A stretch of DNA of 64,000 bases from Nemertoderma westbladi. Its lineage: Eukaryota > Animalia > Xenacoelomorpha. Positions 3,921 to 27,169 of the stretch are shown one piece after another. Made by a program: the position numbers and the translations under genes. Each line of letters starts with the position of its first letter. Within the stretch, counting starts at the first letter, position 1. The stretch covers positions 5,069-69,068 of the forward strand of contig JAUCBJ010001883.1 of the NCBI GenBank assembly GCA_032718475.1. The letters are read 5' to 3'. The notes beneath the pieces were generated by a model. It worked only from the letters and a program-made list of their open reading frames with translations. It was not told the origin of the DNA and did not search any database.

Positions 3921-6424
3921 GGCTTGTGTTTAAGTCACGAATGGAAAAATTAAACAGCTGGGAAATAACGGTTTAGTGGGGGTTTAAATTTATTTATTAA
4001 AAAGGCTTCAGTATGAATTCTTTCAGCATGGGATCTGAAAGACGTATAAACTGCCGCCTTTAACAATCCGTCGCAATCTAGAAAATGCTCCCCTAATAAA
4101 TATTCGCCGTCTCTTATACCATAATACCGGTTGCAGGTACACCATAATTTTGCATAACGCCGCCACTAGGCCTATCCAATGCGAATCAAGCAGGCACAAA
4201 TTTGCAAGTAGGAGTAGATAAACTATTAACGCATGCATTAACATTTTCGCATGCAAACCAAGTGAATTTTTTTTAAGCACAGTAGGCTAATACAGACCCT
4301 TTTTGTAATTATAGAATTTGCTAAATGCACGTAAGTTAAGTTGGGCGCCAAGGGCAAGGCACGCCATTCCCGCAAAGTGTGCAGGAGAAGCCCGCTAAGG
4401 CGGCGCAAGACCCCCAAAGGCCACAAAATTCCATATCGGTACCGGTTCACAGTCACTATACAGTACATACTGTATGATATACACAGTAGGAATACCATAG
4501 GCCTGAATTAATATAGGCCTGGGGCAAGTTAGGATATCACTGGTAAAGCTTGTGTGACCATTTTTGCAAATTGTTCTTTTTGAATTTTTGTTGTTTATTT
4601 ATTGGTGAATGTTGTAGAACCTTAGTAGATATTTTCTAATGGTAGCTAGTGTTTTTTATTCGCTAGTATTTTTTGAAAATGTAAACAAAATTAATATACA
4701 CTGTAAACTGCTATAATATCCTCAATATGTTTTGTCATTTTATATTCTGCAACAGTTTAAACCTGAAATATCAATGTTTTCACATTTTTATATAATTTCA
4801 AAAAATACAAGGTAGTAAAAAAAACATTAGCTACCATAAAAAACATATCTACTAATGTTCTAGAACACTTACCAATAACAAAAATTAAAATTCACGTATT
4901 TTTAAAATTTACAAAATGGTTACACATATATGAAGAGACAATAACAAATACACGAATCCTGCAATATCATACTATAGAGTCTGTGAATCAAAGCATAAAT
5001 CCGACCTTCTCACCAAAACAGTAAACTCCAAGTAGGCAAACCTATTGCAGTATCGGTCTCTTATAACCGGTGAGGCAGAAAACAGTCTACGAACGGACAA
5101 ACTTCGATAAAACAAAATCCCGCGCAGCGAATCCTAAAATCGGGCTGACTCACTGACGGACTAAAGGCGCTCGTATACTTTGCCGCGGTGTGATTTATAT
5201 GATGAAAAAGACGCTAGCTACAAATATAACCAGCGGGAAAATCCGCAGTGTGAACAAATTATTTTATATATTTTGAGGTGCAAATAATTCCTAAACGCGC
5301 GTGTGTTTTAATTCATAGGTCAAAATTGATTTTTATCCTTCATATACTCTCATTTACTGGGTCCGGCGTTTATTTTACAAATATTCTAATATTTTGGTAA
5401 CTTGTAGGTCCAATACTTACAAATAATAAGGCTCCTTCCCCTTTCATGTATTTCCAGGACTCAAATTCAGGCATAGGGTTAATGCTACGCCCAGAATTCG
5501 GCAATTTAATTTACCAGGTCCCTAATACTAAGAAGAAATGTGTTAGTTTACTACTGTAGGCGTACGGTTACAAATAGCTATCCTGGCTCTTATCTGGAAT
5601 TTTAGTCACCTAGGTAGGCTGGGTAACTTCCTATCAGGACGTTGGCGGGGACACGGTAGGTGTTAGTATCCCTAAATAGCCTTAATTTATTTGTGCCTAG
5701 TTGTAAACTGCCCTACCGCCTGAACGGTATAATCTCAATTCAGGGAAAACACAGCAATCCTCTCCTGGCCTACAAGTTCCAACGCAAGCAATAAACACCG
5801 TGTACTGCCGACAAGCCACCAACGCACCTATACCTGACAATGAGTTAGGCGTACAGTTTTGCTGCACCCTACCAATGTACATGCCGGGTAATGGTGTGCC
5901 TGTGTCCTATCTGCGTACGGGTATCTCTGTCTAACTTTCCTTTTCTCCCCGTAGGAATATGAAGGGGTTCTGCGGGTTTTCCAAGAATTGGGACAATACA
6001 GTTCTTAATTTAAATTTTGGCGTACAGTGTGTCGCTACTCCTACCGTCGATCTTAGGTCTTACACTTAGGTAGCGAAGCATCGAACACTGTCTAACCTTC
6101 AGGCGATGGGCGAATAACTCGAATAGATATTGTGGGCGGTCTCCTGTTCATATTCCCCGATGTTCCCGTTCACTGCTGCAGCCCGATGTCTAGCCGGCCA
6201 TCCTGTTCTTTAGGGGCGTTCACCGTGGTGAAACATAGTAAAACAGATAGGAAAAAGGCAGATATAACAAGTATTTTTAACTTTTATTACAAAAGGATAT
6301 ACATAAACGTAACAAGAAACTAATAGATAACTAATAAAGATAATCTAAAGCACGAATGATTGAGATAACTAATGATAGATAGAAGTATACGATTGAGATT
6401 GATAACTAATGATCGAAATCGCAC

Positions 6425-6571
6425 CTTTTATAGCAAATTTGTCCTGCAATCAATCGAGAAAATTCTCGATTGTTCTATGAGTTCTAATAGGTTTTTAAAG
6501 ATAACTATTGGTCCAGCGAATATATAACTTGCACGACATTGGTTATAATCTAATAACTACAGTCCCATTGG
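6425..6571 (-). promoter_or_regulatory. LTR U3 Pol II promoter: three CCAAT boxes and a TATA box
   Basis: Minus-strand CCAAT at 6571-6567, 6542-6538 and 6511-6507 (~30-bp spacing), then TATAAAAG at 6432-6425. Confidence 0.7.
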
Positions 6572-6650
6572 TTAATCTAGGTACAGACAAATGCAATTTA
6601 AATTGTAGCGGTCAATTTAAATGAGTTGAAATTCTGTACAAAAAATAATT

Positions 6651-6724
6651 CGCACCTACAAGGATTCGAACTCAATACCTACTACATATAATTTCCAACG
6701 CTCTACCGACTGAGCTGCTGAACC
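6651..6724 (-). ncRNA. tRNA-derived Pol III-type cassette in LTR U3 (not a functional tRNA)
   Basis: D-arm/A-box GCTC-AGTCGGTA-GAGC, B-box GAGTTCGAATCC, T6 run at 6645-6640. Acceptor and T stems do not pair. Confidence 0.65.
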
Positions 6725-7701
6725 ACTTGAATAATCATCGTACAAATAGATATAGTAAATACAAATGAGGACTCAATGTAATCTTTTAGCAAAGTTAATT
6801 CGAATAAAATAAAATTTTGAAAATCCACGGCATTTATGAGAATATAATTCTATACCGCTCCATGAAAACAGGATATTATCGTGCATAAAATATACGGTTT
6901 TCACCAATACTAAATCAAATTATAGAATACTTAGGACGTACTTACATATTTACAAATTAAATCTCAACAATAATACCTTTACATAATAATTCGATACAAA
7001 ATAATTACAAATTCAAACTTTACGTATTTAAGGCTTTATTAAGTAAGTACAATATAAATCTAAATTAAATTCACCAAAATAAATCTATTGCATCTCAAAT
7101 ATTGCATAAATTCAAACAATCACAAATACTAATACTACTTAAATATAAAACAAATTGCATAAGTTCGGAATAATTTCAAATAATCACAAGAAAGGCTCAC
7201 AAGTCTTCCGTCTGCTCTTGCCTTCTATTTACTGCGAATACAAGTACTGCTTCTTTATAAAATATAAATTGCATAATATTCGAAACAATAAATTGCGTAA
7301 GTTTGGAATGACTACAAATATAGCACTTTTTAAATATAAATCTTTCTAAATTGCATAAGTTTAGAATAATACTGCATAAATTTAGAACAATATAAACTCC
7401 TTTTACATCTCAAATATGAAATATAAATCTTTCAAATATAAATCTTTCAAATATAAGTTCCTTCTAAATATAAAACTTTCTAAATTTCAAATTGGAACAA
7501 TACAAATACATAAATTTAGAACAATATAAATTGCATAAACTTAGAATAATATAAATTGCATAAACTTAGAGCAATACAAATTTTAAACAATACAAATTAC
7601 CTAAACAATTCAATTTACATAAACAATACATAAAACAAACATAAAATAAACAATTCACAAGAAAGGCTCACGAGTCTTCCGTCCACTCCTTCCTTCCCGC
7701 T

Positions 7702-10700
7702 TTAACGCTTAGCGGATCGAGCCCTGCCGTGTCCTCGAAAACTGCGTATCGGCGATTTAGCTCGTGATATGGGACTTGTGGGGCGAGCCACTGGTTTACT
7801 TTGGACGTTGAGAGACGGTACGACCGTTTCCTCACATATTCGTCTCTTAGTCATCCCAAATCCTCGTCCAATCCCTCGTGACCGATCTGTTGTATCTACC
7901 GCTGGTAAAACGTCTGGGAACGCACGGAAAGCGGACGACGCAGACCCAATAGAAGCTTGCGCCCCCTTTTGATCAGCTGGTATATGTCCCGATCCTCCTT
8001 GCAGTTCTCTGGGAAGCGAAACCGTATCCCGAGTAATTCGAATAGTCGGTTCGTATCCCCTTCGTTCTTCAACGTTGATAGTTTTCTTTAACTGTTGGCC
8101 CACTTTCTGGACCCGTATGATCCTACCCTGTCCGTCCTCCCGAGGGTGACGTGCAGACGGCGCGACCGGTGTAGCTGGTATGTTGGTCGCCTCTAGGACC
8201 TCCTCTTCCTCGAATACGCTCGCTCGTATACGTTTATGGTAGAACGCGGCTCGGTACGCCCATGCGACGGTTAACCAAGCTCCCTTGTTCCGCTTTTCCG
8301 TTCGGAACTGATCAAATTCACCATAGGTGATACGATTGACTACTTTCTGGAAGTTCCATGTATTCTTATTGTCAGGGTGTATCTGTAACAAATATTCGCG
8401 CACAACTCGGAATCCGCTATCGTGAGGCAAAATATCAACTACCTCGATGAGTTTGTCATATTGCGGCATAGCAGAGATATATCCTTCCGACATCATAGTT
8501 TGAGGATTTACCGCCCAAAATCCAAGATGCGCTCTCATCGGGAACCGTCGGCTTCTTTGCGCTGCTACATGTTCGTCAGCCAAATCTTCCCACTCATCAA
8601 ATAGTTTTCGCACGAGTTTTACAGATTCGTGTTTGTAAGGTATGTCTCTTAGTTGGCATTCAGATGCTCGATGTCCCTTTATATTGCAGTAGGTACATTG
8701 AGCCATAAATCTCCAGCAAGTATAAAATGTATGGGACCCTTGATCTCCACACCATCCACAGATTAGTTGAGTTGTAGTAATGTGCTTTCCACTGCACTTT
8801 GTCGAATGATGTCCAGCGACGCCATATTTACCACACATCGTATTAGCAGGGTACCACACTCGCTCATATATAAGATCGCCAATGGGTCGAGCGCTTCCTC
8901 CCACACTATAATCATAATCGTCTGGATCGATAGGTTGGTATGTTTCAGAAGGTTGTATGCAAACTACAGCATCTGTTGCTTCTAATTGTCGAATCTCCGT
9001 CTGAGATTTCTTCGGGAGGTTCCTTTCAATCTCAAGAAGTTCCTCTAAAGGATCATCGATGGCTGTCCTTACTTCGAAATCATCACCTAAGTGACCGATA
9101 GGCGCACGCGTCTGCCGTGATTCGTCCGTAAGCTCCACGATACGTTCTCCTTCATAGGGTAACAATATAAACATAGATGGTCTTTCGATAAGAGATCCCG
9201 CACAGCGAAGATACACGTCTCGAAATATACTGAATCCTGCTCGAGTGAAGGCATTACACTGAGCGTCGGAATTATAGAAGGGTTCGAGAAACCGTCTAAA
9301 CACATCGGTATGAATTCTCCCTTCCGCGTGGAATGTATGATCTTCTCCGAGGCAAAGTGGATATCTTTTAAGAGTCCGAGACACAATGTCGGCGACTAAG
9401 CAAACATTCACTGATGACTCTATCGCTAAATAATATTGTAGTAACGCTCTTGGAGGTGAAGTAATAGCCCAATATACGCATCCTCTCCATTTGAGCTGTG
9501 ATTCAAACTCATTTATATCTGGAGTATCACCTTCTCCATACGTTTCGATATACTTTGTTCTTTTACTTTCCTTATAATCCCAATTAAACATCAAGTAGGA
9601 AATATATCCAGTTCCGGTTTTCTGAGTATCATACTCACGGAAGTATCCTTGTTCTATAGACCACAGTATAAGAGGTCGAGTGTCGATGTAAGGTGTCGGT
9701 AATCGGTCGTCACTGTCCGACATGCCGGCGAAGTCACTAATTAAGTCCTCTCTTACTCCTGATCCAATCTTTACAACAGTTTTATCTAAAATCATATTTC
9801 TCACCGTCTTTGGTAACATTCTAGCATCGATATTGCAAGCCTGGTCCATTTTCTTTACTATATTTGTGATGAACTGGTGCTGCTTTGTAGTTCCTGGAGG
9901 TATCGGCATTCGCTTGTCGCTCCTTTGTCTACTGAAAACGGGCAAAACTCCGTCTGCCGCTCTAATTTGTATAGTCTTGGAGGTTAGACTCTGCTGATGG
10001 CTGCCGCCCTCGTTATCATAAAACATGTAACCGTTTTCCTGAAACGATCTAAACGTCCTATTCCATTTGTCCAATAATTCTTCCGAAGGTTGCCAAATCT
10101 TCTCTATATCTTTCTCGTCCTCGAAACGAATGACTTTACCTTGCCAGTCCGCAGCGATATCTGTATCCGACTCAAAGGTTCCTGTTCCAATCCATAAGCG
10201 AATTGTTTTGGTTAAATATCCTTTCAGGTTACTCGGAGCTATATCAGCGCCAGCTCTATCCAGTTCCCTAAAGTCTTGAATATGAGTCGGAACATTATGC
10301 ACGACCTTTTGCGTAATATGTCTACGTAAATCATATATCTTAACCATATCGCTTAGAACAACTGCAGGAAGAAACTCTAAGTTCGAAATGATTTCCGGAT
10401 GATCCACAATAGGTATTTCATACGTTGTATCTTGTCGAACTGGTATACTAATAGGGAAATTGAGTGTCGTACTCAATGGTTTCGTAGTTGAAGTACTATA
10501 CGGTTGCATTTCTCTTGTCCTTTCCGGGGATGCAATCTGTAGTCTCTGAATAACGTTTTGAGCAAAGTTTATACTCTCGAAAACTTCCGGTGTCATCTCC
10601 TTAGCTGAAGTTTGATCGTGTGACGTCCAATGGTAAGGTAGGCTCGCGAGTCTTCCGCCCCATTCTTCCATCTCACCTTTCTCGAAAGCCTTGTAGGCTC

Positions 10701-11427
10701 TGTATAGGCTAAGAGCTTCTTTCTTTTCGCGGGTTGACTGAGTCGCCTCGTCCAGCGTAAGTTCGAATACATCGGGTTCAACAACCTTAGGTGGGTAAAC
10801 GACAATTTCTCCCGCCTTTGGTCCAGTCATGGCGAATGAATGATATGGATTCGATAAAGGATACCCTCCTTCCTGGTAGCGTAGTTGTTGATGGTTCGAA
10901 CACCTCGCCAATATCGGTTCGGGATTTTCCTTATTCAAACGCATCGGAATCGCATTTCGTTGTTCGCGCATACAAGATCCGCATTGATAATAAAGTTTAT
11001 AAACTGAAAATGCTTCCTTAGTTTCTCTATCGTCCCCTCGAGTTCGTCTGTAAAGAAGCATTCCATCAAATTCATCTCGTACCGCAGGCATAGTTTCGTG
11101 CGCCTTCAGGTATTGCATGGTATGATACAAACGACTAATTTCAGTATCGGGGTCTTCGCTAATGTCTCCCGTATCACACAAAGCGTCGTACGGGTAAAGT
11201 TCATTGAAGGTTTTGCGCAAACTTTCGATTCTTTCATTTAACGCGTTTTGCCTTCTCTTTATTACATTCGAGTCATATTTCGTTCTCACGAGTTTCGCTG
11301 TACTTTCTGATAAATCCTTTATTCCAAATATAGTGTAATCCTTAGCTCCAAATCGTTCGAATGGCGCTGCTTCTTCCTCTTGGATATCATATCCCCATCT
11401 CGGCTCTCCTTGTATCCCCTTCGCCAT
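7702..11427 (-). CDS. BEL accessory ORF3 (1241 aa): DEDDy 3'-5' exonuclease (WRN/Mut-7/RNase D-like) plus CCHC zinc knuckles
   Basis: ExoI MFYDNEG (D471, E473); ExoII LPKTVRNMILDKTVVKIGSGVREDL (D561); YIDT; ExoIII-like W...LLQYYLAIE (Y666, E670). Knuckles CGWCGDQGSHTFYTC and CTYCNIKGHRASEC. No signal peptide or TM segment seen. Confidence 0.8.
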   Translation of the reverse strand: MAKGIQGEPRWGYDIQEEEAAPFERFGAKDYTIFGIKDLSESTAKLVRTKYDSNVIKRRQNALNERIESLRKTFNELYPYDALCDTGDISEDPDTEISRLYHTMQYLKAHETMPAVRDEFDGMLLYRRTRGDDRETKEAFSVYKLYYQCGSCMREQRNAIPMRLNKENPEPILARCSNHQQLRYQEGGYPLSNPYHSFAMTGPKAGEIVVYPPKVVEPDVFELTLDEATQSTREKKEALSLYRAYKAFEKGEMEEWGGRLASLPYHWTSHDQTSAKEMTPEVFESINFAQNVIQRLQIASPERTREMQPYSTSTTKPLSTTLNFPISIPVRQDTTYEIPIVDHPEIISNLEFLPAVVLSDMVKIYDLRRHITQKVVHNVPTHIQDFRELDRAGADIAPSNLKGYLTKTIRLWIGTGTFESDTDIAADWQGKVIRFEDEKDIEKIWQPSEELLDKWNRTFRSFQENGYMFYDNEGGSHQQSLTSKTIQIRAADGVLPVFSRQRSDKRMPIPPGTTKQHQFITNIVKKMDQACNIDARMLPKTVRNMILDKTVVKIGSGVREDLISDFAGMSDSDDRLPTPYIDTRPLILWSIEQGYFREYDTQKTGTGYISYLMFNWDYKESKRTKYIETYGEGDTPDINEFESQLKWRGCVYWAITSPPRALLQYYLAIESSVNVCLVADIVSRTLKRYPLCLGEDHTFHAEGRIHTDVFRRFLEPFYNSDAQCNAFTRAGFSIFRDVYLRCAGSLIERPSMFILLPYEGERIVELTDESRQTRAPIGHLGDDFEVRTAIDDPLEELLEIERNLPKKSQTEIRQLEATDAVVCIQPSETYQPIDPDDYDYSVGGSARPIGDLIYERVWYPANTMCGKYGVAGHHSTKCSGKHITTTQLICGWCGDQGSHTFYTCWRFMAQCTYCNIKGHRASECQLRDIPYKHESVKLVRKLFDEWEDLADEHVAAQRSRRFPMRAHLGFWAVNPQTMMSEGYISAMPQYDKLIEVVDILPHDSGFRVVREYLLQIHPDNKNTWNFQKVVNRITYGEFDQFRTEKRNKGAWLTVAWAYRAAFYHKRIRASVFEEEEVLEATNIPATPVAPSARHPREDGQGRIIRVQKVGQQLKKTINVEERRGYEPTIRITRDTVSLPRELQGGSGHIPADQKGAQASIGSASSAFRAFPDVLPAVDTTDRSRGIGRGFGMTKRRICEETVVPSLNVQSKPVARPTSPISRAKSPIRSFRGHGRARSAKR

Positions 11428-11454
11428 TATTAGAGGTATGGTTACATAATCATA

Positions 11455-11491
11455 CTACTAGAGGGAATACAACAGAGTTTATTGTTAGTTG
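11455..11491 (-). promoter_or_regulatory. Putative splice acceptor for ORF3
   Basis: Minus strand CAACTAACAATAAACTCTGTTGTATTCCCTCTAG-TAG: CTAAC branch point, pyrimidine tract and tandem AG about 30 nt before the ORF3 ATG. Confidence 0.55.
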
Positions 11492-12085
11492 TGAGGAGAT
11501 GCGAGAGTTTTCGTCTGCCCTTTTGGCTCGACAACGCTCTAACCTCCTACCCATAGCCTAAGATCTAAGGTTTCTTTAGTGACACACTGTCTTATCTAAA
11601 ATTTTTGCCGAAATAAAAACGAATTTGGGCTAAACTGGCTGTGAGTCTAAAATACTCACTTTTTGATCCCAAACTATTATCAGAAAATAAGCAATCAAGA
11701 GTTAGTAATAAATATAGGGAAGTCTATTATTCGACGTAACTTATTGAAACAAGACCGTGTAAAATTTAATTAAATTTTTAAGAAAGGCTCGCGAGTCTTC
11801 CTTTCTTGTTTCTCTAATTTTAAGTTCCACCCGACTGTACCCTGAAATCTATTCACTGGAGAAAATTTTAAAAATTTTTCAAATCCAAATGGATTGTCTA
11901 AAATTTCGAAAATGTCTCAATATTGTGAGTTCCAAGTAGAATTCCATTTCTTATACCTACAAATCCCGCTCCTATGTGACACATAAGGGTACTACCCTCA
12001 ATGTTCACATATAAAGACAATGGAATTCTACCGCTGTCTTTACTACAGTGTACAGGTATGTGGAAATCTATTTGTAAACTCCTTA

Positions 12086-15000
12086 CTATTTACTAATATT
12101 AGTTGGAGATTTGTAATCTCCAGACTCGTTTCGCGTCTCTTCAAGAAGTACGAGACGTTGTGTCGGTCTGTCTACTGTACGACTGTCAATTGTCCGTACA
12201 GTCACAGTTCTTGTCACACCATCCATAGATGGATGTGTGTCTAAAATTACACCTGTTATCCAGAAGCGTCTTTTTAGATTCACTTCCGCCAACAGCACAT
12301 GATCTCCCGCTCTTAAAGCGCGAGTTTTGTTGTACCAGGTTGTTCTGGCAGAAATAGAGGGCAAATAATGGTTTTGCCATATTTCCCAGAATTTGTTAGC
12401 TAGTAGTTGCGTGATTTTCCACGCTTTTCTACCGTAGCTATCGCCTTCTATTGGAATAGAAATAGGCGTCAAAGTAGTCGGTGCCTGCATAAGCAGGTGT
12501 GCCGGTGTCAAAGCAAATTGGGATTGTTTGTCATCGGGTACTAATACTATTGGTCTAGTATTTAGTATTGCCTCGATTTCAACAAACAATGTTGTCAGTT
12601 GGTCGTCTGTCAATATGTGGTTTACTGGAATTACTTTTGCCATGGCTGTTTTTATAGATCTAATCAATCTCTCCCAGACTCCGCCTCTCCATGGACTGTC
12701 TGGAGGATTAAACTTCCAAACAATCTTGTAAGGACGTAGTTCGTTTGAGATTTGATCATGATCTAAATTCTTAAAGGCTCTAGCAATTTCATTTCGAGCA
12801 CCAACAAAGTTTGTACCTTGGTCTGAGTACGAGCATTTCACTAGTCCGCGTCTAGCGATAAATCGCCTTAATGCTAGTATAAAGGCATTGGTGGAAAGAT
12901 CCATCACACGTTCGATATGAACTGCCCTACTGGACATGCATGTGAAAATCAGTCCCGTTTACTAGTATACGTCCACGTTTCGTATGTATGGGACCAAAGC
13001 AGTCAATTCCAGTCTCTGTGAAAGGTGGTCTGAATGCCTGTAGTCGTGCTTGTGGAAGTTCACTCATTTCTTGGGTACTTATTCTAGAATGTACCTTTTT
13101 ACAAATAATACACATACGTGTCACTGAACTTAACGCTTTACTGGGTCTAATTAATACAAATCTTGTACGTAAATATGAAAGACAGTGGTGTCTTCCAGCG
13201 TGTTTCAGATGTAAATGTGCGTCCAGTATCATTGCACGTTGTAATTCGTGATGCTGCGGTATTATTATTGGGTACCTAAAGTTTGTGTTAAAGTCAATGT
13301 TTTGAAGCCGAGATTTATGACAAATTAAGCCATTATGAATAATCGGACTCCAACTCAGTATTGGTGATGACTTGATTGGTTGACCTTGACTTATAGATGT
13401 GAATTCGCGCGCGAAATATCGCAATTGATAATGCCGAATTAATTTAATTTCACATCTGTCAATCTCAGTCAATGTGAGTCGACGTGTAAAGTCGCGTTTG
13501 CCTTTAACGTATTGTACAAAACGTACAATCCACGCTAATTTTCGGCACGCGTTGGTCCAAGAATCTGTTAGGTTTACAATACGGTCGACGTAAGTATTTG
13601 TGACGTCATCAGGTAAGTCAATGGAGAATTTGGAAGGTTTTGATTTACTAGATGGGCCCACGAGTCCGCCGGTAGGTATTCCCTTGTTGACTGTTGATCC
13701 GTCCGGGTCTACAAGTAATTTGTCCTTCTTTGTTTTCTTACCTTGATTGTCAGTACTTTGTAAGTCGATCGTTAATGGTGGTTTGAACTCTATGGGATCA
13801 CTGGGTTTCGGTAAACTTATTTTTCTGCCGATATTAATCCCAGGTCTCACCGTAGGTTGTAAGGTTGGTATGTCTCTTGAGCGTAAAGTAACACCTGTAT
13901 TTACATTTGCGTAGGTACTACCCACATCTGTAATACATGAGGTTTCACTGTGCTTATGGTTACTCAAGAGTGTTAAGTTTGGTAGTTTGTCATTAGAAGG
14001 CCGCTCCAATAGAGAAACTGCGGCTTTACTATTAGTCAACACATTACTAATGTCTGGTGGAACATTTTGTGACATGTCTGGTAAAATGTTTCGCGGAACA
14101 TCCGGCGAAATATCTAGTGACATGTTTGGCAAAACGTCTGGTTGACCGTCTAGTAACGCGTCTGGTTGTTTGTCATTAGAAGGCCGCTCCAATAGAGAAA
14201 CTGCGGCTTTACTATTTGTCAATATGTTACTAGTGTCTGGTAGAACATTTTGTGATATGTCTGGCAAAATGTCTGGTTGGCTTGTCTAGTAACGTGTCTG
14301 GTTGACCATCTGGCGATACGTCTGGTAACATGTCTGGTTGACCGTCTGGCGATACGTCTGGTAACATATCTGGTTGACCGTCTGGCGATACGTCTGGTTG
14401 AGAAAGGCTCGCAAGTCTTCCTGCCCTAACTTTGTGAGTTATATTCTTCCATTTCGCCTTTGGTTTCTTCTTAAGTTTCGCCGTTGTCCTTTTCTTTGCT
14501 TTACTTTTCTTTGGTTTTTTAATTTCGGCGTCCTCAGGAATAGTGTTAGACTTGTTATCGTATAGTGGCGGCCAATATTGTGTTGCTCTTTGTAAGAATT
14601 GTGGTCCGTGTTGCCAAAATTCTTTGTTCTCCGGTTTACAGAATTCCTCAGGCATCATTCCTCGTGACGCAATATCAGCTGGATTTTGTGGTCCGGGACA
14701 ATGTCGCCAATCTTCCTTTATTGAACGGTCTAGAATTTCTGCACGACGGTTAGCCACGAATGTCTTGAATTCAAGTGTATCGTTGTTTATGTAAAATAAA
14801 ACCAACGTCGCGTCAGTCCAATAAAATATCTGTAAACTTGACTGTAGTTCTGTCTGTATAAGGTTCACGATTGTGGTTGACAGGGTTGCGGCTTGTAGCT
14901 CAGCGCGTGGTGTCGTCATATACTTAGTAGGCATGGTCTTAGCCTTAGAAGTAATGAGCGAAACATCAAACTCGTCTGAGTCTACTTGTCTGCGCAAATA

Positions 15001-18000
15001 CGCTGTCACACCAAAGCCATTGTCACTGGCGTCGGAAAAACAATGTAATTCCAAGTTGTCAGGAAATGTCGTCTGTAATGGAAAGTACACCCGGGGTATG
15101 GAATAATCCTCTAACGAAGATAATTGCGCCTCCCAAGTCTTCCATAAGTCCACTTGTTCGGATGAGATCGGTTCGTCCCATGTCAGTCCATCTTTCCAAA
15201 TACTGCGCATATAAATTCTGGCTTGCAGTATTATTGGGCTGATGAAACCTAATGGATCAAACAGTCTACTTAGTTTCGACAAGCAAGACCTCTTTGTCAG
15301 AGAATCCCCTTCAGCGTCCAGTTTTACTTTCACTCGAAAGTTGTCTGTGTTCGGGTCCCAAAATAGTCCCAACACCTTGGTCGTCGGCAGTGGTTCGAAC
15401 TCTAAGTCAATATCACCACCCCCACGTTCAGTCGTTTCGAATGAATTTACCAATTCAGTGCTGTTTGAGGCAAACTTAGTGAGGTTAAAACCTCCGCCTG
15501 TTAAACAGTCCCGTAATTGATGTGCTACTGTGATAGCACGTTCTACTGTGTCACAACTTTGTAATCCATCGTCCACATAAAAGTCTCGTTCTACGATGTC
15601 GATTATCTCTGGGTCATATATATGTTTCTGATCCCTAGCGGTCTGTTTTAGGGCGTACATAGTGCAATTTGGGCTGTCCCTGGCACCGAAAACGCGAACT
15701 TGCATTTGGTAAGTCGCCGGTGGTAGACTTAAGTCTCCTTCCGGGTACCAGAGGAACCTCAAACTGTCTCTGTCTCGCTCTAACGCTCGCACTTGGTGAA
15801 ACATCGCTTCTACGTCACAAGTAAATGCTACTTGGCGCTGACGGAAGCGCATAATCACCCCCATGAGATAATTATTCATGTTTGGTCCGTCCATCAACTC
15901 ACTGTTGAGAGACATTCCTTCAAACAGGGCCGCGCAGTCGTTAACTACGCGTACTTTATCTGGTTTGTCGGGGTGTCTCACGTAGTGATGTGGCAAATAG
16001 TATGTCTGGTCTGTCACAATCTCTGGGTTTGTCATCCTGATAGCGTACCCTTTTGTCAAATACGTCTCCATCTGAGTATTGTACTGCAGATGGGCTTTCT
16101 CGTCCTTTAATAAACGTTGTCGTATTGAGTGTAGACGTCTTAAAGCTAGCGGATAGTTATTTATGAGTTTAGGACTCTGGTTACGCCATAGCATCCCTAC
16201 CTCATAATGTCCGTCTTTCGTCTGGCGGATAGTATCTTCCATGATCTTCAAAGATTGTTTCTCTTGTTCCGACATACACGGTTCGTAACTACCGGGTTCT
16301 GCTGTATCTTGTTCTAACCACCTGATAGTTTTCTCTGTTAACTCTTTGTCTAATGCAGCTTGTTCCACTTGATGGTTTCCTAACGCGTCATCATCGACGG
16401 GCGTTGTTGAGGTTATTGGTGTAGATAGACTCACAAGCCTTCCGGCGTTATCATCTGTCGTCGATGGAACCTCTGCCTGACTCGTCTTCTTCTTATGCTC
16501 TATACTAACCTTGTGGATAGGCTTCTTTCTGTGACTTATCGTATTTGCTACACACGTCGTACTCGTCGCTTTGTCGTGTTTCGTCGAACGTAGTGTAGTG
16601 TAGTCTATGTCAGGTGAAAAGGAATGAATCGAAGTTGTAGTTAGTAAACTACATGTACTTTGTACATCGTCTTCCTCATCACTTATATCCAGTGTGCGCA
16701 CAGGCGCTCGAGTATACCACCTTATCGGAGTTCTACAGGCGTAAGCGTTTCCCGCTACGACTACCGATGGTCTGGTTTCCCACACTTGATGTAGGTTGAA
16801 TTGGTCCGTCCCGATCAGCATTGCTACCGACCTATAGTTGACAGGACATTCAGGTACACCAAGGTGTCTGAAATACTTACGGTCCTCTAAGGATTGCTCT
16901 GGGACTGGACCTAGTAGGTTACTAAAGTCCTTTATGGCCGCAAAAGTCAAATCCTTAAAAGGTAACAAAGACCTCTCCTTTTCGCTATGTTGCGATTTTG
17001 GAAGAAGAGTGTCCAAGTTTAACTTAACTCGTGTCACTGGTATTGCACGTTGTCCATGCATACTACTTACAGTGTACTTTACGTGTTTACCTTGTCTGAG
17101 ATCTGTGACGACATCAGCTACCTTCTCATCCACGTAGCTGTGAAATGAGGCTGAATCTAGGATAGCGTAGATCCTTTTGCTCCCTTTTGTGCCAGTGATC
17201 TTAACGGGAATTACACTAAAACCCTTTAATTGGTCAGGCGTCAAAAGTGCAATCGATGGTTGTTCGTCTTCATCTGAATATATGTCTTCGTCTTCAGATT
17301 CTTCTCCAGAAGAACCGGATTGTTCTGGGAAGCAATCCCTAATATGTGTCACGAAGGTTGGCGTCGTTCTCGATTCACGTGTTTTGTATGCACTATTGCA
17401 TTTTGCTGCAGCTTCCGGGTGTTCCCTGGTGAAGCGTTTGGTCGGCGTATGACTGTCCGTGTGGAGCAGACCGTCATGGTTGCGTCCACAGTAAGGACAG
17501 GTGTCCGTATTTGGGCAGTCCTTACGGACATGTCCATGTAGCGTACACCGCCAACAAGAATCCAATGGCCGTATTTGCAGTCGTCGTTCCTCCGAGTTCA
17601 ATTCGTGGAATAGTCGACATCCTCTCAGTTTATGGCTAGTATGTGGTTTACCTAGCCATTCGCAATATTGGCAACCGCTAAAAGTCTGTGCTCAGTTGCT
17701 GTCGGGTCTGTTTGGTTCCAATTGGTGCGGATACCTTATTACTGTCTGAAAATTGTCGGGTTTCGGTCGGTGTAGCATAGGTGACCGTCTTTGTAGATGT
17801 CGTTGGTGGTTTCTGTCTGTTTGATGATGGTAAGGTTATTCCTTCCGCCACGATATGTTGGTCCGTGTAGTTCGAACGCGTCTCGACTACTGCCTCTCTA
17901 GATATCAGTAAGTAGACGTCTTCCAACTTCAAGAATCCACCTCTCTCTTCTCGCTGATATTCTATCTTTCGCCACTCCCGACGAAGTCGATGGTGTAATC

Positions 18001-20908
18001 TTCCTATTATTTTCAACAGGACTGTCGGAGTGTTCGCGTAGTCAAGTTGTCCAATCGAGCGTAGTGTAGTAATGGCGTTTTTAATCTCGTCAGCCAATTT
18101 CAGTAAGTCAACGGGTTTTGTAATAGCCCCTCCCTTACAGAGTTCTTCTATTACTGACTTAGCCATACTTACGGTGCCTCCGTAAATCGATGTTAAGCGA
18201 TCGTACGCTAGTTCGAAGGCATCTGGTACACCAACAAAAGTCTCCGCTAGACGTTTCGGTTCTCCCGATAATGTTTGTAACAGGTAGTTGAATTTTTCTC
18301 TCGATGTAAAAGCACACACAGCGATTTGAGATTCAATGTAGTCTACAAAGGTGTGCCAATGTTTAGAGTTGCCGGAAAACTTAGGTGGTTGTTGCACCGG
18401 TAGTCCTTGTCTCGCTGCGAATTTCGCTATTTCTTCAGCAACGTTCAAAGTTTCGCGTCCTGGGTTGGCAACCTGGTTGATGTTCTCCCTTCTTGGCGCT
18501 TTTCTTTGATACGATGTGTTGGTCAATGGTATTTGTCTTTGCGGAACTTTTGGATTTCTATTGTGTTCGAATTCGGAATTTCTCGAACTATCGGAGTGAA
18601 CTTCCTCCAAGCGTTCCTCTATCTGGGCCAACTTGTTGACAACTGGTCGCAGAATGTCGGCAAATTGTTGAGTACTGATTGCGTCCGTTGGTTGTAACGC
18701 CCTTTGTGTTGGTGTATTCTGTGGAGGATTGTCAATAAATGAGTTATCTGAACGCTCACGTTTACATTAGTCGGCCGCTCCTGTTCTAAATACCTCGCGT
18801 TTCGGGTAATCCGACTCACTTGAAGTACTACTGTCACCTGGATACGGTGGTCGATGTGCTCGTGTCCGTTGCGTCGTCCGAATTCTAACGTTTCGCTTCG
18901 GAACATCGTCTACTGGTCTCCTTTGTTCGGTAGGCTCACAGGTCTTCCTCGAAGTCGTAGATTGCAATGTAAACTGGTTAAACGGTCGCGTATCCACTGG
19001 TCTCCGTTGCTCGGTAGGCTCGCAGGTCTTCCTCGAAGTCGTAGATTGCGATGTAAACTGATTAAACGGTGGTCGAGTGACAGCGTTTGAATCTAAAGGC
19101 CTTGTAGGCCTAAACGTCATTGGGTATGTGTAGTGCGTAACGGGTTTTGGTGTCGAAGGTGGACTCACCTGTTTTGTCGTTAGTAGTGCAGGTCCGGTCA
19201 ATAAACTACTACGATCGGCAATCGGTGGGTTACTTACCTTGACTTTCAGAATAGGCGACGACGTTGCTCTTGGCGGTATGAACTTGTCCGGAATAACAAA
19301 CCTGTGTTCCGTCGCACCATGGATAGGAGAAATATTACTACTACCCGCAATCGAAACAGGTTCCTTAGTCGTAACTGGTGCAAACATAGGAGTTACTTGA
19401 GGGAATCTTTGACATAAGTCTTTAACTAGTTGTCTTTCTCGCCAAGGTGCCCCTACACTTCCTTCCTTCATTCGTTCCTGAATTTGGCGGTGCCTTACCT
19501 CTATCTGGTCCAAATCATGTCCGTCACGAGATCTCATCGATCGATCGCGGGATAGAAGATCCAGATTTTCCTTGGCTTCGGCTAGTTCTCTCGCCTTTCT
19601 TTCGAGTTCGAAATGAAGTTTAACTTCCTTCTCGCGTTGTTCCGTCAGTTGTTGTTGCGCCTCGAACTCCGCTTGTCGTATAGCTGATTGAGCCTTTATT
19701 TGCCGTTTTTTCAATTCGGCTTGGGCTTCCGAAACTCGCCTTTGTTCGTCTAACGCTGCCGCTGCCGCTTGTCGTTCCAACTCGGCTGCTGCCGCTTGTC
19801 GTTCCAACTCAGCCGCTGCCGCTGCCGCTGCCGCTGTCGCTGTCGCTTGTCGTTCCAACTCGGCTGCTGCCACTCGTTGCGCTAACTCAGCTGCCGCTGC
19901 TCTTTGTGCTATTTCTAGCTCCAACCTTTCCATCTCAGCCGCTTCCAACTCGGCTTGTTCTTGCAGATGAGAGATTCTCGCAACATTTGCAACGCGTAGC
20001 TTCTCTTCCTCTACAGCCGCTTGTACAGTTAACAATTGAGTTTGTTCTTCCATTTCTCGTTGTTGTCTGTGGTACAGTTGTTGCTGTCTAGAAATTTCTG
20101 ACGTCACTATACTTACCTCGCCAATTTCGCTGCGAATACTCACTAACGATTGGTCCAGTATTTCCGGTGCCGATTCGATTTGTACGGGTAAAGTTCCCCT
20201 CGTATATTCCGGCACGGTTTCCAAATCGCCGACGTCTTCGCCACACATACGTAAGTGATCCGTCAGATGTTTCAGTTGTCCATCCAGTCGGTACAGTTCC
20301 TGTTCTTCCTCGGGCTGTAATAACTCGTCGGAAACCGACTCACCTAGCAACTGGTCCGCTTGTTCCTGTTGTATCTGTCTAATGGTCGTCTTAAACTGAA
20401 TCAGTTTCTCCCTAGCGATCATTAATTTCTCGAGGATTCTAAACTGTGTGTCCATATCCTGTCTCTGTCTAGCTAGATCTTGTAGACCTATTAGATTATC
20501 TACGGACTTATGTACTCTACTCTGTACTCTCACCTGTAGAGTGTAGAACTCGAATCGAGACATCGGAGCGGTCAACTCGTCTAATATGCGTTGGCCTTCT
20601 CCAATACTCCTAGTAATATGCGCCATGTAACCGCCGACGCTTCTAACAACTCTTTCTGTGCTTCCTACTGAACTTACCATCTCCGTTTCCCTATGTCTAG
20701 GTTGCGGGACCGTTAGAAAGTCCTCAGTCCTGCCGTCGCCTCGTACTACGGCATCCGGTACTCCCGTTGGATGTACTGGTGACGCGCACGGTGTATGTTC
20801 GGCAGGCTCGCGAGTCTTCCCCTGTAGTTCTTCCGCTGCTGACTTATCCGCGTCACATGAGTCATAGTCGGTTTGTGTATTCTTCGTATAGTCTTGTTTG
20901 TCACTCAT
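12086..20908 (-). pseudogene. BEL/Pao gag-pol polyprotein, disrupted
   Basis: Coiled-coil Gag N-terminus; Pao Gag core (PPKFSG...EKFNYL); three Cys/His knuckles; protease AILDSAS; RT YLPHH...FYVDD; RNase H FSDAS...NPADIASRG; integrase HHCC and SDQGTNF...GGVWERL. Lesions: in-frame TAA at 18769-18767 and frameshifts near 17685, 14280 and 12957. Confidence 0.93.
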
Positions 20909-21706
20909 TTCGGTAGTTGTAAGTCAAGTAAAGTGAGTGTCAAAGTATCAAACTTACGGTATTTGTATAAAAACGGTATTAATTACAGTCATATAAAATT
21001 AGCCTACCGGCCGATTTTATAGCAGATGGATAAAATTAGCCTAAACGGCCAATTTTACAGCAAATAAATGTCACGGAATAAGTATATAATAAAATTAGCC
21101 TACCGGCCAATTTTATAACAAATAAATCGGATAACGATATGCGTTATCAAAAGGTAAATTAAATACAATAATACGGACTAATTCAGCAATAAACAAAGAA
21201 ATCGTACGGAATGCATAAATACTTGAGACAGTGGAACCCACAATAATTTTAACTAATACGGTAATGCCTAACTTATTTATGCAACTTTTCGAACTCACCC
21301 CCTCCAATGATTCTCCAGAAAAACAGATTCCCAGATACAAACCGGACGTGAACCTTTCCGTTTCCAGCGTTGCGGACGAAGTGCGATTTTCCCAACCAAA
21401 GTTGTTGAGTTATCTATCTCCCAAACTTGCTAAACACGGTCTTGCTCTCGTTACAGTCTAGAAATGAGCTCTGAATCCTGAAAAACAAAAGAGTTAGGTT
21501 TTACTTTTACGAAAATTTTGTACCGGTTCAATATGGTATTTAAACCCCTTTTTTAAACACCGGTATTCAATTCCAAAATATTTTACACGCATTTCAAATC
21601 AAAATTTTATTCAAAATATTAGCACTTAGCTAATCAAATACGAATTTTTACCTCAAAATACAAAATTTTCAAATAATTTTGTTCTGCTGAACCGTAGTTC
21701 AGAAGA

Positions 21707-21718
21707 TCATATTCCTAC
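21707..21718 (-). other. Non-tRNA primer-binding site candidate GTAGGAATATGA
   Basis: Abuts the 5' LTR, lacks the TGG expected for tRNA CCA pairing, and is exactly complementary to LTR positions 22742-22753 and 5951-5962. Confidence 0.6.
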
Positions 21719-23290
21719 TATATGAAGAGACAATAACAAATACACGAATCCTGCAATATCATACTATAGAGTCTGTGAATCAAAGCATAAATCCGACCTT
21801 CTCACCAAAACAGTAAACTCTAAGTAGGCAAACCTATTGCAGTATCGGTCTCTTATAACCGGTGAGGCAGAAAACAGTCTACAAACGGACAAACTTCGAT
21901 AAAACAAAATCCCGCGCAGTGAATCCTAAAATCGGGCTGACTCACTGACGGACTAAAGGCGCTCGTATACTTTGCCGCGGTGTGATTTATATGATGAAAA
22001 AGACGCTAGCTACAAATATAACCAGCGGGAAAATCCGCAGTGTGAACAAATTATTTTATATATTTTGAGGTATAAATAATTCCTAAACGCGCGTGTGTTT
22101 TAATTCATAGGTCAAAATTGATATTTATCCTTCATATACTCTCATTTACTGGGTCCGGCGTTTATTTTACAAATATTCTAATATTTTGGTAACTTGTAGG
22201 TCCAATACTTACAAATAATAAGGCTCCTTCCCCTTTCATGTATTTCCAGGACTCAAATTCAGGCATAGGGTTAATGCTACGCCCAGAATTCGGCAATTTA
22301 ATTTACCAGGTCCCTAATACTAAGAAGAAATGTGTTAGTTTACTACTGTAGGCGTACGGTTACAAATAGCTATCCTGGCTCTTATCTGGAATTTTAGTCA
22401 CCTAGGTAGGCTGGGTAACTTCCTATCAGGACGTTGGCGGGGACACGGTAGGTGTTAGTATCCCTAATAGCCTTAATTTATTTGCGCCTAGTTGTAAACT
22501 GCCCTACCGCCTGAACGGTATAATCTCAATTCAGGGAAATCACAGCAATCCTCTCCTGGCCTACAAGTTCCAACGCAAGCAATAAACACCGTGTACTGCC
22601 GACAAGCCACCAACGCACCTATACCTGACAATGAGTTAGGCGTACAGTTTTGCTGCACCCTACCAATGTACATGCCGGGTAATGGTGTGCCTGTGTCCTA
22701 TCTGCGTACGGGTATCTCTGTCTAACTTTCCTTTTCTCCCCGTAGGAATATGAAGGGGTTCTGCGGGTTTTCCAAGAATTGGGACAATACAGTTCTTAAT
22801 TTAAATTTTGGCGTACAGTGTGTCGCTACTCCTACCATCGATCGTAGGTCTTACACTTAGGTAGCGAAGCATCGAACACTGTCTAACCTTCAGGCGATGG
22901 GCGAATAACTCGAATAGATATTGTGGGCGGTCTCCTGTTCACATTCCCCGATGTTCCCGTTCACTTGCACGACATTGGTTATAATCTAATAACTACAGTC
23001 CCATTGGTTAATCTAGGTACAGACAAATGCAATTTAATTTGTAGCGGTCAATTTAAATGAGTTGAAATTCTGTACAAAAAATAATTCGCACCTACAAGGA
23101 TTCGAACTCAATACCTACTACATATAATTTCCAACGCTCTACCGACTGAGCTGCTGAACCACTTGAATAATCATCGTACAAATAGATATAGTAAATACAA
23201 ATGAGGACTCAATGTAATCTTTTAGCAAAGTTAATTCGAATAAAATAAAATTTTGAAAATCCACGGCATTTATGAGAATATAATTCTATA
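21719..23290 (-). repeat. 5' LTR of the BEL element (1572 bp, lacks the TATA segment)
   Basis: Direct repeat of 4927-6854 with a 355-bp deletion at 22965/22966; tRNA-like cassette at 23087-23160. Confidence 0.95.
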
Positions 23291-23435
23291 ACACAAGCTA
23301 TACCAGTGCCGTTAGGATTAGATAGGGCCACTGAACCCGTATAAATGAAGTTTATTTAATCTTAATGATGGAGAATCGTAAAAAACTTAAACAGTATCTC
23401 TTCAATTCGTAATACCATTGATGTTAAAGTGCCTT

Positions 23436-26400
23436 TGACCGAATCTGCTCCGATAACCTCAGTTTCATGTTCAATGCCGCAGTTGGCTGAATCTTCCCAG
23501 ATAACCCCAGTTATGTGTTCAGCGCCGCAGTTGGCTGAATCTGCCCCGTAACCCCAGTTTTGTGTTCAGTGCCGCAGTTGGCTGAATCTGCCCCGATAAC
23601 CCCAGTTACGTGTTCAGTGCCGCAGTTGGCTGAATCTGCCTAGATAACCCCAGTTTTGTGTTCAGTGCCGCAGTTGGCTGAATCTGCCCCGTAACCCCAG
23701 TTTCGAGTTCAGTGCCGCAGTTGGCTGAATCTGCCCCGTAACCCCAGTTACGTGTTCAGTGCCGCAGTTGGCTGAATCTGCCCAGATAACCCCAGTTTTG
23801 TGTTCAATGCCGCAGTTGGCTGAATCTGCCCAGATAACCCCAGTTATGTGTTCAGTGCCGCAGTTGGCTGAATCTGCCCCATAACACCAGTATCGTGTTC
23901 AGTGCTGCAGTTGGCTGAATCTGCCCAGATAACCCCAGTTTTGTGTTCAGTGCCGCAGTTGGCTGAATCTGCCCAGATAACCCCAGTTACGTGTTCAGTG
24001 CCGCAGTTGGCTGAATCTGCCCAGATAACCCCAGTTTTGTGTTCAATGCTGCAGTTGGCTGAATCTGCCCAGATAACCCCAGTTATGTGTTCAGTGCCGC
24101 AGTTGGCTGAATCTGCCCCATAACCCCAGTATCGTGTTCAGTGCTGCAGTTGGCTGAATCTGCCCAGATAACCACAGTTACATGTCCAGTGCCGCAGTTG
24201 GCTGAATCTGCCCCGATAACCACAGTTACATGTCCAGTGCCGCAGTTGGCTGAATCTGCCCCGATAATCCCAGTTACATGTTCAGTGCTGCAGTTAGATG
24301 AATCTGCCCCAATAACCCCAGTTACATGTTCAGTGCCGCACTTAGATGAATCTGCCCCGATAACCCCAGTTACATGTTGAGTGCCGCAGTTAGATGAATC
24401 TGCCCCGATAACACCAGTTACGTGTCCAGTGCCGCAGTTGGCTGAATCTGCCCCGATAACCCCAGTTACATGTTCAGTGCTGCAGTTAGATGAATCTGCC
24501 CCAATAAACCCAGTTACATATTCAGTGCCGCAGTTAGATGAATCTGCCCCGATAACCCCAGTTATGTGTTCAGTACCGCAGTTGGCTGAATCTGCCCAGA
24601 TAACCGCAGTTACATGTCCAGTGCCGCAGTTGGTTGAATCTGCCCAGATAATCGCAGTTACATGTCCAGTGCCGCAGTTGGATGAATCTGCCCAGATAAC
24701 CCCAGTTATGTGTTCAGTGCCGCGGTTGGATGAATCTGCCTAGATAACCCCAGTTTTGTGTTCAGTGGGGCAGTTGGCAGAATCTGCTCCGATAACCCCA
24801 GTTACGTGTTCAGTGCCGCATTTGGCTGAATCTGCCCCGATAACCCCAGTATCGTGTTCAGTGCTGCAGTTGGCTGAATCTGCCCAGATAACCCCAGTTT
24901 TGTGTTCAGTGCCGCAGTTGGCTGAATCTGCCCAGATAACCCCAGTTACGTGTTCAGTGCCGCAGTTGGCTGAATCTGCCCAGATAACCCCAGTTTTGTG
25001 TTCAGTGCCGCAGTTGGATGAATCAGCCCCGATAACCCCAGTTACATGTTCAGTGCCACAGTTGGATGAATCTGCCCCGATAACCCCAGTTACATGTTCA
25101 GTGCCACAGTTGGATGAATCTGCCCCGATAACCCCAGTTACGTGTTCAGTGCCGCAGTTGGATGAATCTGCCCCAATAACACCAGTTACATGTTCAGTGA
25201 CGCAGTTAGATGAATCTGCCCCGATAACCCCAGTTACATGTTCAGTGCCACAGTTGGCTGAATCTGCCCAGATAACCCCAGTTACATGTTCAGTGACGCA
25301 GTTAGATGAATCTGCCCCGATAACCCCAGTTACATGTTCAGTGCCGCAGATGGCTGAATCTGCCCAGATAACCCCAGTTACATGTTCAGTGCCGCAGTTA
25401 GATGAATCTGCCCCGATAACCCCAGTTACATGTTCAGTGCCGCAGTTAGATGAATCTGTCCCGATAACCCCAGTTACATGTTCAGTGCCGCAGTTGGCTG
25501 AATCTGCCCAGATAACCCCAGTTACATGTTCAGTGCCGCAGTTAGATGAATCTGCCCCAATAACCCCAGTTACATGTTCAGTGCCGCAGTTAGATGAATC
25601 TGTCCCGATAACCCCAGTTACATGTTCAGTGCCGCAGTTAGATTAATCTGCCCAGATAACCCCTGTTACGTGTTCAGTGCCGCAGTTGGATGAATCTGCC
25701 CCGATAACCCCAGTTACATGTTCAGTGCCGCAGTTAGATGAATCTGCCCCGATAACCCCAGTTACATGTTCAGTGCCGCAGTTAGATGAATCTGCCCCAA
25801 TAACCCCAGTTACATGTTCAGTGCCACAGTTGGCTGAATCTGCCCAGATAACCGCAGTTACATGTCCAGTGCCGCAGTTGGCTGAATCTGCCCAGATAAC
25901 CCCTGTTACGTGTTCAGTGCCGCAGTTGGTTGAATCTGCCCAGATAACCGCAGTTACATGTCCAGTACCACAGTTGGCTGAATCTGCCCAGATAACCCCA
26001 GTTACATGTTCAGTGCCGTAGTTAGATGAATCTGCCCTGATAACCCCAGTTACATGTTCAGTGCCGCAGTTGGCTGAATCTGCCCAGATAACCGCAGTTA
26101 CATGTCCAGTGCCGCAGTTGGCTGAATCTGCCCAGATAACCCCTGTTACGTGTTCAGTGCCGCAGTTGGCTGAATCTGCCCAGATAACCGCAGTTACATG
26201 TCCAGTACCAGAGTTGGCTGAATCTGCCCAGATAACCGCAGTTACATGTCCAGTGCTGTAGTTGGCTGAATCTGCCCCAATAACCCCAGTTACATGTTCA
26301 GTGCCGCCGTTAGATGAATCTGCCCTGATAACCCCAGTTACATGTTCAGTGCCGCAGTTAGATGAATCTGCCCAGATAACCCCTGTTACGTGGTCAGTGC

Positions 26401-27169
26401 CACAGTTGGATGAATCTGCCCCGATAACCCCAGTTACATGTTCAGTGCCACAGTTGGATGAATCTGCCCAGATAACCCCAGTTACATGTTCAGTGCCGCA
26501 GTTAGATGAATCTGCCCCAATAACCCCAGTTACATGTTCAGTGCCGCAGTTAGATGAATCTGCCCAGATAACCCCAGTTACTTGTTCAGTGCCGCAGTTA
26601 GATGAATCTGCCCAGATAACCCCTGTTACGTGGTCAGTGCCACAGTTGGCTGAATCTGCCCAGATAACCGCAGTTACATGTCCAGTGCTGCAGTTGGCTG
26701 AATCTGCCCCGATAACCCCAGTTACATGTTCAGTGCCGCAGTTAGAAGAATCTGCCCCGATAACCCCAGTTACATGTTCAGTGCCGCAGTTAGATGAATC
26801 TGCCCAGATAACCCCAGTTACATGTTCAGTGCTGCAGTTGGCTGAATCTGCCCCGATAACCCCAGTTACATGTTCAGTGCCGCAGTTAGATGAATCTGCC
26901 CAGATAACCGCAGTTACATGTCCAGTGCTGCAGTTGGCTGAATCTGCCCCGATAACCCCAGTTACATGTTCAGTGCCGCAGTTAGAAGAATCTGCCCCGA
27001 TAACCCCAGTTACATGTTCAGTGCCGCAGTTAGATGAATCTGCCCAGATAACCCCAGTTACATGTTCAGTGCCGCAGTTAGATGAATCTGCCCAGATAAC
27101 CCCTGTTATGTGGTCAGTGCCACAGTTGGATGAATCTGGCCCGATAACCCTAGTTACGTGTTCAGTGCG
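23436..27169. repeat. 48-bp satellite, ~78 units
   Basis: Consensus GTGCCGCAGTTGGCTGAATCTGCCCAGATAACCCCAGTTACATGTTCA; some 47-bp variants at the left end. Confidence 0.97.

Follow-up and report, generated by a model that had tools for sequence, protein, structure and literature searches.

The window analysed here, a 64,000-nt stretch of Nemertoderma westbladi contig JAUCBJ010001883.1 (positions 5,069 to 69,068), contains a BEL/Pao long terminal repeat (LTR) retrotransposon in which nine copies of an imperfectly palindromic 20-mer are dispersed over 13.6 kb, from the start of gag to the 3' untranslated region (UTR). There is a strong case that this array is real, confined to its family within the range tested, and probably subject to selection. 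Its function can be suggested only tentatively: a family-specific RNA tag, recognised by zinc-knuckle proteins that the element itself encodes, is put ahead of a site in DNA, with somewhat less than even confidence.

A search with the core pattern gave eight exact matches, at 7193, 7664, 10640, 11785, 14405, 18932, 19016 and 20804, each of them on the + strand, and none in 100 shuffles. The 20-mers themselves (Table 1) start 3 nt before these coordinates (7190, 7661, etc.), which are used below to name the copies. With up to 3 mismatches there were 14 matches in the window, against a chance mean of 0.41, all of them within the element: the eight exact ones, a variant at 16427 (2 mismatches), three hits that read these palindromes in reverse, and two weak sites, 9100 and 15127. 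Scored with a weight matrix over the window, the nine sites reach 32–40 bits and the next independent site 15. A preliminary description of this DNA had reported eight exact copies and a variant, confined to the element, and this is borne out. It had also reported none in the LTRs, which is correct but unremarkable, since such an absence is expected with P ~0.4; half-sites alone are common outside the element too. All nine copies had been placed in one orientation. This holds for eight, but copy 16427 is ambiguous, having its inner arms swapped so that its 5-bp core hairpin forms on the opposite strand from that of the others.

Read on the RNA strand the motif is GGAAGAC-YYGYGA-GCCT-NYC, with 13 of 20 positions invariant over the nine copies. 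As previously described, copies are found in the 3' UTR, in the spacer between pol and a further open reading frame (ORF3), and in coding regions in two frames: KT[RC]EP three times in gag, and GRL[AV]SL twice in pol and once in ORF3. The two frames and the three non-coding copies rule out a repeat at the protein level. In the third frame, EDSRA/EDLRA was found in five of 122 proteins, as single occurrences. The earlier placement of copies in non-catalytic linkers also stands, in that all five gag-pol copies are in stretches aligned by about two or fewer of 121 related proteins; 41% of gag-pol bases are in stretches of this kind. Not all copies are independent: 18932 and 19016 belong to one 84-nt tandem duplication, and the flanks of 7193 and 7664 are alike at 16–17 of 30 nt, leaving 7–8 independent sites. 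For most other pairs of copies flank identity is at chance level. Copies mostly follow one another at 0.5–3 kb, and for 8 sites this spacing is more regular than chance would give (largest gap 2976 nt, P 0.04).

Rfam gave four chance-level matches, none at a 20-mer copy, and on this ground hammerhead ribozymes and other known families of structured RNA were ruled out. A histone-type stem-loop was rejected by inspection, the loop having no run of U. In part, the 20-mer may resemble BANP/Kaiso, Smad and ETS sites and the Pol III B box.

Table 1. Features of the BEL/Pao element and its 20-mer copies (window coordinates).
Feature	Position	Strand	Remarks
BEL/Pao LTR retrotransposon	23290..4927	minus	18.4 kb; from LTRs, target duplication and domains
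5' LTR	21719..23290	-	1572 bp; TA...TA ends; 99% identity with 3' LTR
Leader hairpins	20990..21117	-	three related stable hairpins upstream of gag; z -3.0; 1 of 100 shuffles equally stable
gag-pol	12086..20908	-	DUF1759, knuckles, reverse transcriptase (RT), Peptidase_A17, integrase, DUF5641; five stop-free pieces
Copy 1	20801..20820	-	gag N-terminus, frame KTREP
Copy 2	19013..19032	-	gag linker, KTCEP, within 84-nt tandem duplication
Copy 3	18929..18948	-	duplicate of copy 2
Copy 4	16424..16443	ambiguous	variant with swapped inner arms; linker upstream of RT, GRLVSL
Copy 5	14402..14421	-	linker between RNase H region and integrase, GRLASL
Copy 6	11782..11801	-	pol-ORF3 spacer; sole copy with predicted hairpin in RNA context (pair probability ~0.9)
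ORF3	7702..11427	-	1241 aa, open, after pol; predicted DEDD-type 3'-5' exonuclease-like domain and three knuckle-like motifs
Copy 7	10637..10656	-	N-terminal part of ORF3, GRLASL
ORF3 exonuclease-like domain	~10050-9400	-	predicted
ORF3 zinc-knuckle-like motifs	~8835-8656	-	three, predicted
Copy 8	7661..7680	-	3' UTR, directly past ORF3 stop
Copy 9	7190..7209	-	3' UTR
3' LTR	4927..6854	-	includes ~355-bp segment missing from 5' LTR; from LTR alignment

The control set consisted of 97 BEL loci (721,627 nt), each 31–45% identical in the RT region. Because they are this distant they serve as controls for the frequency of such arrays and not as tests of conservation, and no sister family was found among them. 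The 20-mer is missing from all 97, the best matrix score being 14, where the sites of the element itself reach 29–36. When dispersed families of any 16-mer were sought de novo (2 mismatches, copies >300 nt apart), the element gave nine clusters, eight of the motif plus the weak site near 15140, and 91 of the loci gave at most three. Larger counts in four of the remaining six come from flanking tandem repeats or a duplicated contig; one falls to 2 in the internal region; and the sixth, L088, has 4 copies. When only ORF spans were searched, with 18 short loci dropped, 77 of 79 qualifying loci gave two or fewer and this element's gag-pol gave 4; the two exceptions are one duplicated contig. There is no such array in three 13-kb BEL elements with other extra ORFs (L092–L094, ~6000–19450). 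These are in a bacterial genome bin, likely as host contamination, and have two extra ORFs after pol, one of which in L094 matches a baculovirus F protein (E 2e-14). In viral_contigs the extended motif had no matches, and the Pol and ORF3 profiles no relatives. No description of a dispersed motif array in an LTR retrotransposon was found in a literature search whose coverage excluded supplements, with possible repeat-library annotations, and most subscription papers. With 13 of 20 positions fixed, mostly unrelated flanks, probable recurrence in further 3' UTR contexts of the family and absence from the 97 BEL loci, the multivalent cis signal of the preliminary description is supported as a multi-copy signal at the nucleotide level.

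Variation within the family could be followed in three DNA runs (organism A), where it is present at high depth in copies 80–99% alike. Substitutions across the family are strand-symmetric (in run X1, C>T 235 and G>A 256). Among 40 listed, of ~1900, one is inside a 20-mer, at the free position 20803. Between 16370 and 16500 four substitutions exceed 3% of depth; two of them are flanking and the other two hit degenerate positions of the motif. The swapped inner arms of copy 16427 are untouched, and the swap is therefore a family trait. The three listed polymorphic substitutions within 20-mers are all on degenerate positions (chance ~0.04). Among the nine copies of this element, the two pyrimidines of the central YGYG toggle between C and U while the two guanines stay constant (7–8 events to 0, P 0.008–0.016). 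Changes cluster on seven of the 20 positions, with P 0.002–0.30 under a uniform model and 0.09–0.65 with CpG weighting, and selection inferred from this clustering is suggestive only. Deletions from motif to motif, as predicted for a template-switch hotspot, were absent among 15 listed of 86 skipping joints. Run X2 has joints from 11801 to 7085 (depth 8036), from 14421 to 7085 (depth 1799) and from 7017 to 7659, and X1 and X4 have loose ends behind 7134; to judge from these short contigs, there are probably motif copies in 3' UTR contexts missing from the copy analysed here.

As an RNA tag, the motif would recur about every 1–3 kb along the transcript and be bound by zinc-knuckle proteins, more likely ORF3 than Gag, whose binding would gather an unusually long RNA into a ribonucleoprotein particle. 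Each site might be a weak element, protein-stabilised or of the kissing type, its invariant loop guanines (Y-G-Y-G) read by CCHC knuckles. Acting together, many such sites could be bound with high avidity and self-specificity, which would help to compact, pair or protect the ~16-kb RNA; the exonuclease-like domain of ORF3 would then be recruited to tagged RNA or held away from it. In Rous sarcoma virus (RSV) a CCHC knuckle reads a guanosine in a UGCG tetraloop (PMC8833184; here and below, papers given by PMC number are cited for their accessible portions), and in mouse mammary tumour virus (MMTV) the dimer palindrome is adjoined by a purine-rich stretch (PMC8096270). In the element, a stretch of 12–20 nt 5' of the motif on the RNA strand is purine-rich (0.71–0.73 versus 0.55, P <0.001). 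The common orientation of eight copies and their even spacing also favour a role on this strand, as does the restriction of the YGYG changes to pyrimidines while substitutions across the family are strand-symmetric. Every pair of copies is predicted to form a duplex as RNA-strand sequences (mean -17 kcal/mol, range -4.5 to -29), and the YGYG toggles preserve G-C or G-U pairs in these duplexes. Variation is not mirrored between the halves of the 20-mer, which argues against a symmetric DNA dimer and not against an asymmetric reader. A more specific version, in which the ORF3 exonuclease-knuckle protein reads the tag and licenses, protects or transports its own transcripts in the face of host small-RNA silencing and rival elements, is unlikely, though it should be kept in mind.

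A number of observations weigh against an RNA tag. The dyad itself is clear, at least 8 of 10 pairs being complementary (chance ~6e-4), but the RNA hairpin originally proposed is not supported as a stable fold of the genomic RNA: on the RNA strand single copies fold at 0 to -3.3 kcal/mol and the consensus at -0.19, with 57 of 72 cells paired, whereas the opposite-strand consensus forms a bulged 7-pair stem at -3.31 kcal/mol with 62 of 63 cells paired. In 200-nt context a hairpin is predicted for one of nine copies (11785). Covariation, proposed earlier as a check in sister families, failed to appear across the nine copies, no pair being changed on both sides on either strand. Duplexes between copies are no weaker on the opposite strand (mean -18.5), and even shuffled 20-mers reach -12.4 +/- 4.4, so pairing energy, which is modestly above that of shuffles, cannot pick a strand. 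One subfamily, accounting for all of the X4 depth and fitting contig ends in X2, has lost 9 nt from 16440, which changes two positions, fixed in the other copies, in the first arm of copy 16427; in our reading, the inverted orientation of that copy then fits better. The shared orientation of the others would also follow if copies had spread through template switching. By analogy, unidirectional motifs could equally be DNA sites, as for VANC proteins, and zinc fingers that tolerate C or T before G could account for the toggles. Any link between ORF3 and the 20-mer would, moreover, come from the sequence of one family. For the selective packaging role first suggested, four copies in and around ORF3 and its 3' UTR would also be carried by a separate ORF3 message, if there is one, and the leader has a hairpin cluster of its own; packaging is weakened to that extent.

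The ORF3 product would be a more economical reader than Gag, because all BELs have Gag knuckles, while the 97 controls have neither an ORF3 match nor the array. Pfam finds only a weak knuckle in it, and other evidence comes from distant similarity. For residues 430–740, 25 of 30 Atlas neighbours carry PF01612 (3'-5' exonuclease; score 0.92, 161 of 256 shared features), and a PDB profile match to an exonuclease has E 1.9 only. Among 1.84 billion representatives there is one relative, P0122, with 512 residues aligned at 24% identity (pairwise E 2e-14); the only other match shares just the knuckles. P0122 (558 aa, from a 7.5-kb contig) has the same layout of exonuclease-like region and three knuckles. 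The D-x-E and a third D align between the two, the fourth acidic position being E rather than D; these residues presumably correspond to the ExoI, II and III motifs. Word-indexed searches, limited to near lengths, found no homolog of ORF3 and, for P0122, only itself, and the domain had no match in phages. AlphaFold models on 2-sequence alignments have mean pLDDT (predicted local distance difference test) values of 28 and 30. An ORF3 protein composed of a 3'-5' exonuclease-type domain and three zinc knuckles is a lead only, predicted from these comparisons.

The preliminary description's second option, a DNA site for a dimeric factor, remains open. On this account the motif would work as a dyad-symmetric double-stranded site for a host factor acting in transcription or on chromatin, or for a domain of ORF3 that has escaped recognition, and would keep the element open or marked as self, in the way that VANC serves VANDAL transposons. 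It needs no stable RNA fold and would make sense of the dyad; all 18 half-sites fit one pattern, in which, by our reading of the columns, four invariant positions are mirrored in both halves, and the core of copy 16427, with its swapped arms, is on the opposite strand. There are also parallels in VANC motifs, which are family-specific and arrayed one way (PMC5735166), and in Klf4, which tolerates CpG or TpG (PMC5137437). Set against this, in five of the ten dyad pairs variation is confined to one side, the purine-rich flank is one-sided, and the element, with its two knuckle clusters, encodes no recognised DNA-binding domain; in addition, VANC motifs have a length of 9 nt and are mainly non-coding, whereas six of the nine copies here are in coding frames. 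On balance, a DNA site is nearly as probable as an RNA tag. Another structure that fits the columns well is the small bulged hairpin of the opposite strand, which might act in an antisense transcript or in the first cDNA (complementary DNA) strand during reverse transcription. Its bulge is the hypervariable base, and as RNA the hairpin has predicted energies of -3.9 to -4.9 kcal/mol in eight copies. With DNA energies, however, it is near zero, random transitions on one copy match the consensus fold in 21% of 2000 trials, and there is no + strand ATG-started ORF of at least 100 aa; this makes it quite improbable.

The array might instead have no function, and consist of short duplications made by template switching of reverse transcriptase and tolerated only in linkers and spacers. 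The gag-pol copies are all in poorly conserved linkers that hold other tandem repeats as well, two pairs are local duplications, copy 4 has its deletion in one subfamily, and with few events or fast-mutating CpGs the clustering of changes falls short of significance. Neutral copies would not, on the other hand, be expected to keep 13 of 20 core positions fixed while the flanks of most pairs are at chance identity, nor the CpG guanines constant from copy to copy. The confinement of polymorphic substitutions to degenerate positions and the lack of any such family in nearly all of the control ORF spans also speak against them, and a functionless array is rated as improbable, if less so than the opposite-strand hairpin.

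Several known systems resemble this one in part. The multiple dispersed packaging signals of MS2, picornaviruses and hepatitis B virus pregenomic RNA are likewise many short, weak motifs with a shared recognition motif, coding regions included (PMC6281560, PMC7612645); as described, those are short, degenerate and read by capsid protein (PMC6281560), while here 13 positions are fixed, the carrier is an LTR retrotransposon and binding is putative. Palindromic dimerization signals of Ty3, Ty1 and retroviruses share the purine-rich neighbour and, as far as the weak fold predicted here allows, the self-complementary 6-nt core in a short hairpin (PMC11381356, PMC8096270), but in those elements a single palindrome, or a few that differ, is placed close to the 5' end (PMC11381356), in contrast to one motif repeated along 13.6 kb. 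In the VANC/VANDAL21 anti-silencing system there is also a family-specific, multi-copy motif in one orientation (one copy being ambiguous here), in a transposon with an extra ORF. That is a plant DNA transposon, with its motif in tandem arrays and VANC a proven DNA binder (PMC5735166), unlike the widely spaced, largely coding copies and exonuclease-knuckle-like ORF3 of this element. The bdelloid LTR retrotransposons Juno and Vesta have a third ORF of 3'-5' exonuclease (DEDDy) type downstream of pol, its role not demonstrated; the accessible portion of that account mentions no dispersed motif (PMC5408684), and here the carrier is BEL/Pao, with a longer, knuckle-bearing ORF3 and the array. By analogy the array may work like dispersed packaging signals or, if it is read as DNA, like VANC sites.

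To our knowledge, packaging and self-recognition signals of LTR retrotransposons beyond Ty1 and Ty3 are poorly defined. This one element holds both a nine-copy, 20-nt candidate ligand and two candidate reader domains, so that questions of packaging or self-recognition, and of the role of ORF3, can be tested with short oligonucleotides and isolated domains. An RNA tag would extend dispersed packaging-type signals to retrotransposons, and self-recognition by ORF3, if it occurs, would give an animal LTR retrotransposon the RNA-level equivalent of VANC anti-silencing; with a DNA site, the element would be an animal LTR case of a VANC-like arrangement. Transposon specialists would be interested in either outcome, but not in a neutral one.

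Assignment of the element to BEL/Pao is based on its LTRs, a 5-bp target duplication on each side, and the domain order gag-protease-RT-RNase H-integrase. Pfam matches are DUF1759, Peptidase_A17, the integrase zinc domain and DUF5641. Identity to BEL polyproteins across the RT-RNase H region is 38–44%; these proteins come from marine invertebrates, with corals, bivalves and echinoderms among the named sources. The gag-pol of this copy is interrupted by one stop and three frame changes. The LTRs differ by 12 substitutions and one 1-nt indel across their 1572 bp, the ~355-bp segment aside. LTRs usually end in TG...CA, as do many of the BEL loci compared, but the LTR alignment and target duplication place the termini here at TA...TA. 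The segment found in the 3' LTR only (6526–6175) has CCAAT-, TATA- and AATAAA-like words, and loose ends at 22963 in runs X2 and X4 place it in other family members as well. At 23150–23085 (and 6715–6650) the LTR has tRNA-like A- and B-box words by eye, where ARAGORN calls no tRNA.

No tRNA-type primer site directly follows the 5' LTR. The 12 nt after it (21718–21707) are the exact reverse complement of an LTR-internal 12-mer (22753–22742, minus strand), a length reached by 2 of 3000 random internal 20-mers. This recalls self-priming of the Tf1 type (PMC4600332), of which no report in BEL/Pao was found in a single literature search; the TATA-like box within 6526–6175 could shift the transcription start. 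The leader hairpins have stems of 10–12 bp and are distinct from the dispersed 20-mer, although two of them contain a half-site of it. They are a candidate for a conventional packaging cluster, and could pair with the 20-mer arm in four copies at a predicted -15 to -17 kcal/mol, a figure that has no control. The AT-rich 3' UTR (7563–7109) has seven copies of TTAYGCAA on the RNA strand, some within 25-nt tandem units; we take this word to resemble a basic leucine zipper (bZIP) site.

Two other repeats are found in the window. A second LTR element, of Gypsy type (34327–39501), has 186-bp LTRs (99.5%) and one open 1543-aa ORF, and the de novo search found no dispersed motif family in it. A satellite of ~78 copies of a 48-bp unit (23435–27170) starts 150 bp from the 5' end of the BEL/Pao element.

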